From positions 24,713 to 88,712 of the IMG/VR virus record IMGVR_UViG_3300019762_000007: a DNA stretch of 64,000 bases; one strand, 5' to 3'. Each line of letters opens with the position of its first letter. The first letter of the stretch is position 1. A program made the position numbers and the translations under genes. The notes beneath the pieces are model-generated. The model was given only the letters and a program-made list of their open reading frames with translations, was not told where the DNA came from and did no database searches. The stretch is from a virus. This document shows, in pieces, positions 5,912 through 20,427 of the stretch.

Positions 5912-8900
5912 TTAAAACAACTTTCTAGTAAAGAACGAATCTACTCTAGTTATGTCTTCTTTTTTCTCTACTACTATTCTATGCATCTGCTGTTTCTGTA
6001 TAATACATAGCATCATTGCAATAACACGGTCAAAGTTTCCAGTAGCATTATAAGTAGCTAACTCAGTTAAAAGTCCTACAGAGTAAATCCTATGTAAGTT
6101 TTTTACACCATCTCCTGCATCTGTAAGTAGCCAATCTCTAAGATAAATCTCAGCCTCTTCTTTTACATTCTTATTCATATGTTGACCGAGCTGTCTATTT
6201 ACTTTAGAATCTACATTTGCTTTAAGTACAGTTGGTGTAGGTGCGAGGTACTGTAAACTATTGTGAGATTCAAAGTAAGATTTAATATTCATCTTCTCGT
6301 TCTCATATAAACAAGTACCATACATATTATAATATACTAATAATCTTCTACAAGTTTCATAGAAGTCTCTAGCTAATGCAGGTCTTGCTGTGTATTCCGC
6401 TACTATCTGATCGTACCCTGATCCTCCTACACATTGCCTCTTCATAATAAAGATAGACCCTAAAGAAACAGAAGTTGCTGCTTTGTCTTGGTCATAAGGG
6501 TCACAGTTATGGTGTGATATGCCTTTAGATAGATATGTATGAGTCTCACATTCTAAGTTATAGACGGGTCCAGTATAAGTAGATTTAGTTACGTCTTTAA
6601 CCTGAAAGTATATGTATTCTAAGTCATTGCTAATAAAGCAGCCCATTTTAGGCTCCTTTCTAATAGTAACTATATCTTGTATTTTAGCTAATTTTATGTT
6701 CTTGTTATTATTTATACCTATTTGTAACTTAATCGTACTATGATGACTAAGTCTTAAGTGATATGTTTCACCAGTTATAGAATTTAAACTATTTATAGTA
6801 GCTGTTCCTGCTTTTCTTAAAAGGTTAATACTGCTGACTATACCTACACTAAATAATATATCTTGAATATCTTCTAGCAATTCTAGACTAATGCTAACAA
6901 ATTCTGTTATAGAATAGCCATTTGTATGTGTTGATATACATCCGTCAGAGTCTAAGTACCCTTCTAACAGTTTGAATTTAAAGTCCTCTTTTATATATTT
7001 AATACTCTCAGATATGTGTTTACCTTTTGCACCTTTTCCAAAAATAGAAGACAAGAAGCGAGATATACCCTCATGAGAGAAGGAGACTTCTACACAATTT
7101 TCTCTAGTTCTACTGTTAGCTGACTTTCTAAATAAATTCTCGATAACAGATTTAAGTCTTTCAATAGTATATAATTCTGTAGCATTAAGTGCTACAGATA
7201 CCCTGTTTCTACCTTTATCACACCAACCATCTCCTAACCACAATCCTACAAACCACCAAAAGTCGTCAGACTCTAGCATCTCTTCTGGGATATAGTGTAT
7301 ATTTAAAGGCTTTACTTTTCTATAAATATTAGGAAACTTAGACCACTGTCCCACAGTTACATCCTTAGCTTCTACATAATCAAAACTAAATAAAGACTCG
7401 TCTATAGTTTTATCTGATCTATAAGGAGTATTACTAACATATATAGGATGCTCCTCTGTAAAATTAGTTGTTCTAAATGTGTTAGACATTTTGAATCTGT
7501 AAGTAGGATGCTCAACTTTATTACGTATTTGTAGATTTATTATACTAATCTCTTCCCCATCTTTATTAATTAACTTATCATCTAAAGAGACCTCTTCTAT
7601 TGATTTCAATCCTGAAGTAGTTATAACCTTTTCACCAGGTGTTAGGCACCCACCCATATACATTCCGTATCCTGCTTCTGGTGTTGGGTGTTCCCATATT
7701 TGGACTGCTCCTGTGTTATCTGCATCAGGTTTTACAGGGTAACCACAAACTTGTAGTTTACCAGAAGTATCAGGTACGAAGTTTACCTTCCCTTCTGCGG
7801 TGGTAATTAGTTCTCCAATCTGTCCTTTTATCTCACCGTCTAAAGAGGCATTTACATAGCCTAATTGGGCACGTAAGTCCGCAACTGGCATAATACTACC
7901 TCCAGCTACTAAGAAGGCCTCTCCGGGGAATATAGGACGCTGTGTAAGCTCGTCATTATATGCTTTCTTATTATTAGCTTTAGCTTTAACTTCTCTAGCT
8001 CTTAATATATAATAAATAGCTGCTTTGTAATCTGTATTACCAAGTTCGTCTTTATACTGGTTGAGTCCCATCCAAGCAGGAATAAACAAGCCAATCTCTT
8101 TATCTGTCTCACCATAGTGATCCTTTCGGGCTACACATGCCCAAGCTCTAGGGTCATAGAATACAGAATAGATAGCTAAACTAGCTCCTCCGTCCATATC
8201 ACCTCCAGTACCTGTCATCCATAATCCTCCAAACTTCTCTCCACCTGCTACCATACACTCTCCTAGCTGTCCCATAGCCCCTAATAGATTATACATTAAA
8301 CCTATCTCGTCTAGAACTCCGAATATATAGCGGTTACCATTACCAGCAAATATATTAGCGTCAAAAGATCTATGTTGGATATTAGATTTAGTACCTTTAA
8401 ATTTCCATGTTCCACCTTCTTTAACTTTATACTCATGTCTAAAAGGATTCTTTCCGTTCCCACAGTCTAGGGAACCAGCTGTAAGCCTAGAGAAAGGGCT
8501 AGGGTAAGTTATAGATCCTACACTTTGAGACCCTACCATTTCCTCCATACCAAGTTTGAACTTTGATACAGTATCACCAGAATACTTAGAGTCAATAGCA
8601 CCTATTAATTGTTCTGCTGTAGGAGGCTTCCCTTGTGAATGGGCTAGCTTAGCAGCTTCATAAGATGTAACACCAGAAGTAATAAAGGTATATCCTACTA
8701 ATCCACTCATTGTATAAGACTTACCTACTCCTCGACTTTCGATATCGGCTAGATTAAGAGCCTCATTAAACATAAGTATTGTACCTAGAGGTTTAGTTTG
8801 GTATTCCCAAAGCATTTCATCTGCTGGTTTATACTTCTTATAAGTACCAGAAGAGGTAAGAAGGCTTTCATGTGCTCTGTCCTTGGCTCCTAGATTGCTC

Positions 8901-9349
8901 AGTCTAAACTTTAGTTCGAGTACATCTTCTTCACTCTCATTAGGATTTAGACCTTCTAGTGCTCTATGTGCTGAAAACTCATCATCTAATTCAAATCCAG
9001 AAAAACCTCGCATTTCATAATATAGATAGAATTTAATCCATTCAACGTCACGTATCTTAGGCCTTCCAATTACTTTACCTTTAATATCAGACTTATCGTC
9101 ATTAAGTTTAATACTCCAGTATTTACCATAAAAGTACATTGCTCCAGGAACCCACTTATGTAATCCTTCATGGCTTACCCAGAATCCATCATATATTCTT
9201 CTTTCTTCTTCTCTCCAATATAACTTATACTTTATTGATAAAGGATTAATAACTTGTACAGGGCCTCTAAGTACCTTATCTAAAGGTATTTTGTTTATAT
9301 ATAGAATCTTATCTATATTAATCTTACCTAAATATTCATCTACTGTCAT
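5912..9349 (-). CDS. terL: Terminase large subunit with intein (~764 aa after splicing)
   Basis: Walker A SRGVGKS, Walker B GVLDEIG, coupling motif MTGTGG, nuclease GG|CDPY and NFDRV. Confidence 0.92.
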   Translation of the reverse strand: MTVDEYLGKINIDKILYINKIPLDKVLRGPVQVINPLSIKYKLYWREEERRIYDGFWVSHEGLHKWVPGAMYFYGKYWSIKLNDDKSDIKGKVIGRPKIRDVEWIKFYLYYEMRGFSGFELDDEFSAHRALEGLNPNESEEDVLELKFRLSNLGAKDRAHESLLTSSGTYKKYKPADEMLWEYQTKPLGTILMFNEALNLADIESRGVGKSYTMSGLVGYTFITSGVTSYEAAKLAHSQGKPPTAEQLIGAIDSKYSGDTVSKFKLGMEEMVGSQSVGSITYPSPFSRLTAGSLDCGNGKNPFRHEYKVKEGGTWKFKGTKSNIQHRSFDANIFAGNGNRYIFGVLDEIGLMYNLLGAMGQLGECMVAGGEKFGGLWMTGTGGDMDGGASLAIYSVFYDPRAWACVARKDHYGETDKEIGLFIPAWMGLNQYKDELGNTDYKAAIYYILRAREVKAKANNKKAYNDELTQRPIFPGEAFLVAGGSIMPVADLRAQLGYVNASLDGEIKGQIGELITTAEGKVNFVPDTSGKLQVCGYPVKPDADNTGAVQIWEHPTPEAGYGMYMGGCLTPGEKVITTSGLKSIEEVSLDDKLINKDGEEISIINLQIRNKVEHPTYRFKMSNTFRTTNFTEEHPIYVSNTPYRSDKTIDESLFSFDYVEAKDVTVGQWSKFPNIYRKVKPLNIHYIPEEMLESDDFWWFVGLWLGDGWCDKGRNRVSVALNATELYTIERLKSVIENLFRKSANSRTRENCVEVSFSHEGISRFLSSIFGKGAKGKHISESIKYIKEDFKFKLLEGYLDSDGCISTHTNGYSITEFVSISLELLEDIQDILFSVGIVSSINLLRKAGTATINSLNSITGETYHLRLSHHSTIKLQIGINNNKNIKLAKIQDIVTIRKEPKMGCFISNDLEYIYFQVKDVTKSTYTGPVYNLECETHTYLSKGISHHNCDPYDQDKAATSVSLGSIFIMKRQCVGGSGYDQIVAEYTARPALARDFYETCRRLLVYYNMYGTCLYENEKMNIKSYFESHNSLQYLAPTPTVLKANVDSKVNRQLGQHMNKNVKEEAEIYLRDWLLTDAGDGVKNLHRIYSVGLLTELATYNATGNFDRVIAMMLCIIQKQQMHRIVVEKKEDITRVDSFFTRKLF
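6506..7648 (-). mobile_element. Intein with LAGLIDADG endonuclease in TerL (381 aa)
   Basis: Starts CLTPGEKV, block B TEEHP, motifs VGLWLGDG and LEGYLDSDG, ends HHN before extein Cys. Confidence 0.93.
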
Positions 9350-16330: not shown

Positions 16331-16720
16331 ATGTTAGAAAATAAAGCTAGAGATATTATAGTAAGTCATGCAAGAGCCACTCTTACTAAAATACCCGTAG
16401 AAAGCGGGGCATGTAGATATAATTTCCGATGTCACAATAATGCTGTAAATGACGCTCTAAATAATAATCAAGATTCTATAGCAATGTGTATTTATATTGA
16501 TGAAGGTTACCCTGTAATTCATTTCATAAATATAGATAATGACGGAATATATACTGATAATACATTAGGAAGATGGAGTGAGACTGTAGAATATTTCTTA
16601 GTAAAGAAAATACCTAAAGTGGATTTCTTTACTGTTAGTACAGTATTCTCCGCTTATAGAAAAGAATTAAAACGAAAAATACCATTCGTTATAAGAATAC
16701 TTAACTGGTACAAATTTTAA
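16331..16720 (+). CDS. Hypothetical protein
   Basis: 129-aa ORF, CHNNAV motif. Confidence 0.65.
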   Translation: MLENKARDIIVSHARATLTKIPVESGACRYNFRCHNNAVNDALNNNQDSIAMCIYIDEGYPVIHFINIDNDGIYTDNTLGRWSETVEYFLVKKIPKVDFFTVSTVFSAYRKELKRKIPFVIRILNWYKF

Positions 16721-16724
16721 TACT

Positions 16725-17018
16725 ATGAAAATAGAGGATAAAGTAAAAAAGCTAATAGCTGAAAAGTTAGACTTAGATTCTGAAGATGTTAAAGCTATCA
16801 CAGATAAAACAACTTTTGAGTTTTTAAAAGCAGATGAATTAGATATTATAGAAATAATAATGGATTGTGAAAAAGAGTTCAATATTATTTTTACTGTAAA
16901 AGAAGATACTAAAATTGCTGGTACGGAAAATGCTACAGTACGAGATTTAATAGAAATTATTAAATCTCATTTACAAAACACCAACAAAGTTAACAACGCT
17001 AGTGACTCTAAAGAGTAA
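16725..17018 (+). CDS. Acyl carrier protein-like protein lacking the phosphopantetheine Ser
   Basis: IEDKVKKLIAEKL...LKADELDIIEIIMDCEKEFNI...TVRDLI aligns with ACP; DSL motif reads DEL. Confidence 0.8.
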   Translation: MKIEDKVKKLIAEKLDLDSEDVKAITDKTTFEFLKADELDIIEIIMDCEKEFNIIFTVKEDTKIAGTENATVRDLIEIIKSHLQNTNKVNNASDSKE

Positions 17019-17058
17019 TTAACTTTAGATAGCCTGTAATTCTAGAATTGTTGGAATA

Positions 17059-17131
17059 GGTATATGTAATGCTCAGTTGGTTAGAGAGCTACTCAAGGGA
17101 GTGGTCGTAGGTTCAAGTCCTACCATATACC
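17059..17131 (+). ncRNA. tRNA-like RNA 2, anticodon arm replaced by a tetraloop hairpin
   Basis: GGTATATG/CATATACC, D arm GCTCAGTTGGTTAGAG, GCTACTC-AAGG-GAGTGGT, T arm GTAGG-TTCAAGT-CCTAC. Confidence 0.75.
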
Positions 17132-17132
17132 C

Positions 17133-17223
17133 AAAAGATACTAGAGAATACAGTTCGAGGCTGTACCTGCTTTTCAAAAGGGCGGACAAGTAGCATAATA
17201 ATGGTTAATGCGCAGTATCTTTT
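17133..17223 (+). ncRNA. tRNA-like RNA 3, circularly permuted (T arm before D arm; Y RNA/YrlA-like topology)
   Basis: Closing stem AAAAGATACT/AGTATCTTTT; TACAG-TTCGAGG-CTGTA; closed hairpin; TA-GCAT-AATAATGGTTA-ATGC. Confidence 0.7.
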
Positions 17224-17228
17224 AATTA

Positions 17229-17398
17229 GGACATATAAGCTCATTGGATAGAGCTTATACATATCAAGCGTAAAAAGTATAGATATACGGAGGTAAAGAT
17301 TGAGATACCTGAATAGACAGGCTAAGAACTTCCCATGATATACTCTCAATAGCTTCTAGATATAGTATAGGTAGTTGGTTCGATTCCAACTATGTCCT
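17229..17398 (+). ncRNA. tRNA-like RNA 4 with ~119-nt structured insert in place of the anticodon arm
   Basis: GGACATA/TATGTCC, GCTC-ATTGGATA-GAGC, GTTGG-TTCGATT-CCAAC. Confidence 0.75.
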
Positions 17399-20352: not shown

Positions 20353-20427
20353 AGAGCTGTAACTTAATTGGACAAAAGAGGGAGACTTTTGACTCTCTTG
20401 ATGTAGGTTCGAATCCTACCAGCTCAC
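20353..20427 (+). tRNA. tRNA-like RNA 6: Gln/Lys-type tRNA with an 8-nt anticodon loop
   Basis: GAGCTG/CAGCTC with 1:72 mismatch, GGAGA-CTTTTGAC-TCTCT, GTAGG-TTCGAAT-CCTAC. Confidence 0.7.

Follow-up and report, generated by a model that had tools for sequence, protein, structure and literature searches.

How can a phage gene encode a protein that aligns with acyl carrier protein (ACP) over the whole ACP core and yet lack the serine that carries the prosthetic group, and what might such a protein do during infection? The question is raised by a 97-residue open reading frame in the window, by which we mean the entire 64,000-nt stretch of DNA that was analyzed. The source record is an 88.7-kb IMG/VR virus, 59% complete by the CheckV estimate, with head genes of the crAss type (portal phrog_6547, major head protein phrog_11589, and a long TerL). 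For the major capsid protein, identity to described crAss-like phages does not exceed 41%, and a few uncultured contigs reach 51–58%. The phage DNA is present in microbial-mat metagenomes; the source virus is a crAss-like phage of microbial mats. The gene lies where the structural module gives way to the replication module, in a run of small plus-strand genes with no assigned function, and its ATG is 4 nt past the stop codon of the upstream gene. The features referred to below are as follows.

16331..16720, plus strand: upstream gene, 129 aa, phrog_6596, function unassigned in PHROG; a neighbor for which no link to the ACP-like gene was found.
16725..17018, plus strand: open reading frame of the serine-less ACP look-alike (P0001), 97 aa, assigned from family matches and predicted models.
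16836..16838, plus strand: GAA codon for Glu38, at the phosphopantetheine-bearing Ser site of the DSL motif, placed by sequence and alignments.
16836..16880, plus strand: predicted helix II, the ACP docking helix, residues 38–52, from the AlphaFold2 model and the column comparison.
16920..16934, plus strand: five extra residues, G66–A70, in the loop before helix IV, from the column comparison.
16977..17015, plus strand: C-terminal tail, residues 85–97, past the ACP core (last block pLDDT 56).
17060..17131, plus strand: tRNA-like element beginning 42 nt downstream of the stop codon of the ACP-like gene (37 bits against the Rfam tRNA model; no call by ARAGORN).

A preliminary description of this DNA held that the protein aligns with ACP from end to end. 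The family searches bear this out, since the PF00550/AcpP match extends over the whole core and HMMER aligns residues 1 to 75 with E. coli AcpP chains, placing LKADELD over LGADSLD. The match to the PF00550 PP-binding model, a search that the same description had proposed, reached 23.1 bits (E 9.1e-5) against a gathering cut-off of 20.8. The protein also matched phrog_5934, “acyl carrier protein,” with an E value of 3.1e-8, and 76 PDB ACP sequences at E≤1, the best at 8e-7. It matched TIGR00517 at E 1.7e-11, yet the score of 43.8 bits lies below the equivalog cut-off of 70.45; the AcpP equivalogs NF002148-51 were likewise not reached (44.2 bits versus a cut-off of 71). Judged from its sequence, the phage protein is a diverged member of the ACP family that fails the family's defining chemical feature.

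In ACPs, 4′-phosphopantetheine is attached to the Ser of the D-S-L motif. The corresponding column is Ser in 174 of the 204 aligned domains among the search hits; in the phage protein GADSLD reads KADELD, as had been noticed at the outset, with Glu38 at the attachment site and residues 20 to 80 otherwise devoid of Ser. By established ACP chemistry, a protein whose attachment Ser is Glu cannot be loaded, and the phage protein is thus unable to take phosphopantetheine at the canonical site, hence not an acyl carrier, in agreement with the earlier view that it is non-loadable. An assembly error as the source of the Glu codon is excluded by a contig from another run (X3, record 10) that spans 16562–17309 with zero differences; contigs of four other mat runs carry the same sequence with no variants. 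Going from Ser to Glu takes two or more base changes. The carrier Ser has truly been lost from this protein, and not by accident.

AlphaFold2, run with an alignment of 115 sequences that consisted mainly of true ACPs, returned a model with a pLDDT of 86 and helices at residues 3–14, 19–24, 38–52, 58–65, and 72–92, while the single-sequence AlphaFold2 model was poor (pLDDT 50). The top Foldseek matches of the model were E. coli AcpP complexes (TM 0.88 by target, rmsd 1.2 Å), and a single-sequence model from the ESM Atlas (pTM 0.73) also fell nearest to ACP clusters, some of them viral. The predicted fold is therefore ACP-like, a point on which the preliminary description had made its reading depend. 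That description also named helix II as the ACP docking surface, and the acidic residues of this region, D37, D40, E43, and E49, are indeed kept, together with F52. The protein has a pI of 4.7 and a net charge of about −8.

Compared with E. coli AcpP (9ka7, 1l0h), the phage protein is alike in its four-helix fold, size, and charge, with 36–45% identity, and the two have in common the acidic helix II, the D-x-L-D motif, the following E, and E-x-x-F. The phage protein differs in having Glu for Ser, in scoring below the equivalog cut-off, and in carrying five more residues before helix IV, three more in loop I, and a 13-residue tail.

Two sets of domains, 40 distinct ones with Glu or Asp and 285 with Ser, were aligned to one HMM and compared. 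The docking positions are kept at least as well in the former as in the latter: the Asp before the site (D−1) is present in 100% of Glu/Asp forms versus 99% of Ser forms, D+2 in 100% versus 85%, E+5 in 97% versus 94%, and the invariant E+11 in 100% of both. Two features set the acidic forms apart. An insertion of 2–5 residues before helix IV occurs in about 50% of Glu/Asp forms versus 2–8% of Ser forms, and two columns in helices III and IV that are mostly Ala hold Leu, Val, or Phe in the Glu/Asp forms. We take these two Ala columns to line the acyl pocket in ACP structures, and bulkier Leu, Val, or Phe at them would fit a pocket that is filled. Most of the Ser domains are, however, conserved AcpP orthologues, and general divergence may account for part of the contrast. 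The preference for Glu or Asp at the Ser site fits a mimic of the phosphate, but no better than it fits an acidic residue that caps helix II or one that strengthens a metal site. The strictness of this preference is also the only point in favor of a reading in which Glu38 is itself a covalent loading site, bearing a carboxylate-linked cargo as in amino-group carrier proteins. We regard that reading as highly improbable, given that Glu38 is internal, not C-terminal as in known carboxylate carriers, and that the scans of neighboring genes turned up no loading enzyme, whether a ligase, an ATP-grasp protein, or another kind.

The window's protein is isolated among known sequences. A search of 5.8 billion proteins, with an exhaustive search of 1.84 billion representatives, recovered the protein itself (on three contigs) and then only cellular ACPs, the nearest of which keep Ser and are 37–59% identical to it. 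Megablast of the locus against phage records returned nothing, and scans of viral contigs with the protein, alone and together with the upstream gene, found no relatives. The lone tblastn match, MT835512, was set aside: it is a bacterial contig with the gene order plsX-acpP-rnc and an ordinary Ser-bearing ACP, not a phage relative. A PP-binding match was absent from the nearest crAss-like contigs (those with 51–58% capsid identity), one of which is 87% complete, and for this reason the gene is dispensable in that lineage. Bacterial acpP contigs from runs X3 and X5, whose flanks encode GADS, match window positions 16838–16887 at 42 of 50 bases, a weak hint that a bacterial acpP of the same mat may have been the source of a captured gene.

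Serine-less ACP look-alikes nevertheless recur in other phages. The matches in the representative search included nine other proteins with Glu and two with Asp at the Ser site; with the query counted, the non-Ser tally of 10 Glu, 2 Asp, and 5 others is biased by the query's own Glu and is not a frequency. The nearest phage homologue, P0039 (41–42% identity), was found by a pattern scan of viral contigs and reads GADELD; it lies on a 265-kb jumbo-phage contig next to a gene that, as read from its open reading frame, is dUTPase-like, with a tRNA-Asn gene 780 nt downstream. A further family, P0043/P0183/P0185, keeps DELD. The ACP homologues extracted from isolated phages present a different picture, with DSLD in 14 of 16; the two others are DELD in Salmonella phage SKML-39 and DNLD in Vibrio phage 277E43-1. 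In the latter (L040, OX241464.1 53589-54122) the DNLD domain forms the N-terminal part of a longer hypothetical protein. The SKML-39 protein drew 271 tblastn matches, essentially all in the family Ackermannviridae. Glu or Asp occupies the site (D[E/D]LD) in seven of seven sampled Ackermannviridae proteins, which are 37–100% identical to that of SKML-39; the seven represent Kuttervirus, Agtrevirus, Limestonevirus, Taipeivirus, and one unassigned Aglimvirinae phage, out of 271 records that carry the gene. The preliminary description had proposed to check whether DEL is conserved in phage homologues: P0039 has it, the sampled Ackermannviridae have Glu or Asp at the site, and most homologues from isolated phages keep Ser. 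The concern that close homologues might retain Ser did not materialize: there are no close homologues, and P0039 has Glu.

In Ackermannviridae the gene always follows a ∼2.2-kb gene for a structural protein with a vWFA domain, and in CBA120 (L050:3001-3312) it stands two genes before an annotated RNA polymerase ADP-ribosylase. These genes have been termed “putative acyl carrier protein,” and one peptide of such a protein was detected in Sajous1 virions (PMC10892097). In the literature that we searched, the absence of Ser from phage ACP look-alikes is neither remarked on nor investigated. The Ackermannviridae proteins (CBA120 orf142, LIMEstone1 gp113, SKML-39, Maynard, 0507-KN2-1, Menlow) have the Glu/Asp site and the lengthened loop before helix IV in common with the window's protein; they differ in length (103–113 aa), in a long insert after helix I, and in host range and phage family. 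No specific kinship between the two is detectable, and the shared substitution may be convergent. An HMM built from the Ackermannviridae proteins does not favor other Glu/Asp forms over Ser forms in its ranking. A tree of 115 sequences does not resolve, and the Glu/Asp label needs eight changes on it. The acidic substitution therefore looks convergent across lineages on the sequences compared, and the window's protein is a further, independent member of an uncharacterized set of phage serine-less ACP look-alikes.

These observations bear on whether the gene is a decaying auxiliary metabolic gene, that is, a captured host acpP that has lost its Ser, has no function, and is heading for loss. Its lineage-specific occurrence, with neither close relatives nor a counterpart in related contigs, and its score under the AcpP equivalog cut-off would agree with decay. 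The open reading frame is, however, intact, tightly packed among its neighbors, and identical in several samples; its docking residues are kept and its fold is predicted with confidence; and the two or more base changes behind Glu38 produced an acidic replacement that is shared with the sampled Ackermannviridae and other lineages. We consider decay quite unlikely.

Bacteria also encode serine-less forms. One family consists of 77-residue standalone proteins with the motif GADE[LM]D that are 36–38% identical to the phage protein (L056, L057, L028, L015, and L021), located by pattern scans at the following positions.

L056:3992-4225: 77-aa Glu paralogue.
L057:3992-4225: 77-aa Glu paralogue, near-identical protein.
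L028:4992-5225: 77-aa Glu paralogue.

L056 and L057 are Clostridiales/Eubacteriales metagenome-assembled genomes, and L028 is an unclassified metagenome contig. Pfam scans of the neighboring genes in L056 and L028 place the paralogue between plsX and rnc, with smc next in L028. The plsX-rnc interval is the usual slot of the ACP gene in Firmicutes. When L056 and L057 were searched whole, each was found to encode a canonical GADSLD ACP elsewhere as well (L064/L065). This arrangement suggests a tie between serine-less forms and a partner in lipid synthesis. Unlike the phage gene, the paralogue is chromosomal and its product has no loop insertion; literature searches found no characterization of it.

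Other bacterial Glu/Asp domains are parts of larger proteins. A 290-residue protein (L030:2642-3514) combines an N-terminal TIR_2 domain, ThsB-like in PADLOC, with a charged linker and a C-terminal PP-binding domain bearing GADELD, and from this architecture it may be a defense-type protein that uses a serine-less ACP module. Glu/Asp forms also occur as the PP-binding part of a 1068-residue protein with TPR and DUF2971 regions (L014:113-3319), as an internal Glu-type domain ahead of a heme-binding-type motif region in a 1765-residue Bacteroidetes protein (L058:5-5302), and as the N-terminal domain of a 205-residue Bacteroidales protein (L061:3989-4606). Many Glu/Asp domains are preceded by a signal peptide or lipobox-like N-terminus (L017, L019, L022, L023, L027, L029, L059, L062, and L063), and these forms are presumably exported. 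Exported forms cannot meet cytoplasmic ACP partners, so the fold is evidently used as a general module too.

The exported forms, which cannot act on cytoplasmic ACP clients, lend something to the notion that what the acidic phage protein mimics is not ACP: it might be a nucleic-acid mimic directed against restriction or DNA-binding defenses, or else a binder of divalent metal. Glu38 would add to the acidic residues with which helix II begins, in a protein that already has a low pI and a charge of about −8, and the protein is small, its gene lying among other small phage genes that have no assigned function. The acidity is no less in true ACPs, though, so that the charge is inherited and not new; the pattern of conservation is that of the ACP docking helix; the protein has no similarity to known DNA mimics; and PADLOC models of defense and counter-defense gave no family at E≤0.01. 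We hold such a mimic to be improbable.

What, then, would a non-loadable ACP do for a phage? ACP is highly connected, its partners including enzymes of fatty-acid, phospholipid, lipid A, biotin, and lipoate metabolism as well as IscS, MukB, and SpoT. Our preferred reading, which we rate at about an even chance, is that the phage protein is a pseudo-ACP that binds one or more partners of the host ACP as a decoy or modulator. It would be a cytoplasmic protein with a stable predicted four-helix fold and an intact acidic helix II that is never phosphopantetheinylated or acylated, and it would act purely through protein-protein binding by occupying the ACP-docking site of at least one host protein. 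The first candidate targets would be holo-ACP synthase (AcpS), because its natural substrate is unmodified ACP, and the PlsX/glycerol-phosphate acyltransferase step, because the Clostridiales Glu paralogue sits beside plsX. Host lipid synthesis or ACP-dependent signaling would then be damped or redirected during infection. That ACP clients are bound, which ones they are, and what the phage gains are all inferred, on the strength of the retained helix II and, by analogy, of the toxicity of apo-ACP. The preliminary description, which had proposed a possibly phosphomimetic decoy that blocks ACP partners or an ACP-dependent defense effector, is thus supported in part: the fold, the lost Ser, and the docking residues agree with it, and a role that involves a defense effector or SpoT would be conjecture.

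Several results support the preferred reading: the protein is ACP in fold and family with Glu at the Ser site, its docking residues are as conserved as in Ser forms, and the acidic change recurs and is maintained in Ackermannviridae, the jumbo phage, the P0043/P0183/P0185 family, and the paralogue in the plsX slot. Furthermore, no phosphopantetheinyl transferase gene was found in the whole 88.7-kb record. Obligate apo-ACPs (E. coli apo-ACP and Synechococcus ACP S39A) are likewise folded and unmodifiable; they are laboratory constructs with Ala or Thr, whereas the window's protein is a natural phage product with an acidic residue. PMC4736557 reports that over-expression of the obligate apo-ACP S39A suppresses growth and, citing Keating et al. 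1995, that glycerol-3-phosphate acyltransferase is inhibited by apo-ACP. The Plasmodium falciparum mitochondrial ACP has likewise lost its prosthetic group and works through partner binding, being essential through its binding to Isd11-Nfs1 (PMC8547962); it differs in being eukaryotic and organellar, with an LYR protein as its partner. On the other side, several ACP partners mainly recognize the phosphopantetheine arm or need the Ser, so that a serine-less form may bind poorly, and IscS does not bind S36T ACP (PMC13343975). In bacteria many Glu/Asp forms are either exported as lipoproteins or built into large proteins, and such forms cannot be decoys of cytoplasmic clients. The closest crAss-like contigs, moreover, do not have the gene.

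The Plasmodium protein is also the precedent for a second role, in which the phage protein would not inhibit but would be a stable accessory part, as adaptor or structural subunit, of a complex made by the phage or of a host complex that the phage has remodeled, much as ACP is for MukB or Nfs1-Isd11. The fusion of bacterial Glu/Asp domains to TIR, TPR/DUF2971, and other regions suggests a general docking module of this sort, as do the position of the Ackermannviridae gene after the vWFA structural gene and the peptide from Sajous1 virions. Against an adaptor, helix II retains exactly the residues that host enzymes use, the gene is missing from the nearest relatives, and no co-occurring partner gene emerged. 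Family scans of the neighboring genes gave no informative family, and the upstream phrog_6596 gene is found in many unrelated siphophages whose records are absent among the ACP-like matches. Overall, an adaptor seems rather unlikely, and the decoy or modulator remains the reading that we carry forward.

A broader and more speculative proposal, which we think unlikely, is that Ser-to-Glu ACPs are convergent mimics of holo-ACP that dock on PlsX or AcpS, serve housekeeping in bacteria, have been copied by phages, and act as bait or anchor in TIR fusions. If this were true, the plsX-linked Clostridiales paralogue would be a housekeeping regulator of the entry of acyl chains into phospholipid synthesis; crAss-like, Ackermannviridae, and jumbo phages would each have made their own copy to seize host membrane synthesis; and bacterial immune proteins such as the TIR-pseudo-ACP fusion would employ the same module as bait or anchor. 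Even in its narrower form, the proposal would add a new kind of tool for host takeover, a natural ACP copy that cannot be loaded and that several unrelated phages retain, and the plsX-linked paralogue suggests that bacteria employ the same device. A serine-less ACP might further be used as a ready-made probe to learn which of the interactions of ACP are important in infection. The database name “acyl carrier protein” is misleading for such genes. Since the Ackermannviridae members are cultured phages of E. coli, Salmonella, Klebsiella, and Dickeya, the idea is directly testable.

The preliminary description had further placed the gene directly upstream of a cluster of tRNA mimics. The position is right, in that the element at 17060–17131 follows 42 nt after the stop codon, but no functional tie between the two was found. 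The element folds into a cloverleaf whose anticodon arm has a 7-bp stem and a 4-nt loop, with a folding-energy z-score of −2.7. The terminator scan found no terminator-like site between the stop codon and the element and none in the rest of the region scanned, where promoter-like sites occurred at chance level. Other phages also have ACP-like genes near tRNA genes, and such proximity is common for accessory genes. A second tRNA lies at window positions 20353–20427 on the plus strand (Rfam 43 bits), for which ARAGORN gave a four-base anticodon, “tttg,” with no amino-acid identity.

The large terminase gene of the same phage (window positions 5912–9349, minus strand) is unusual in length. Only the C-terminal part of its 1145-residue product matches TerL, and residues 568–869 match a PHROG family annotated as the large subunit of anaerobic ribonucleotide reductase; the extra segment may be an insertion, for instance an intein.
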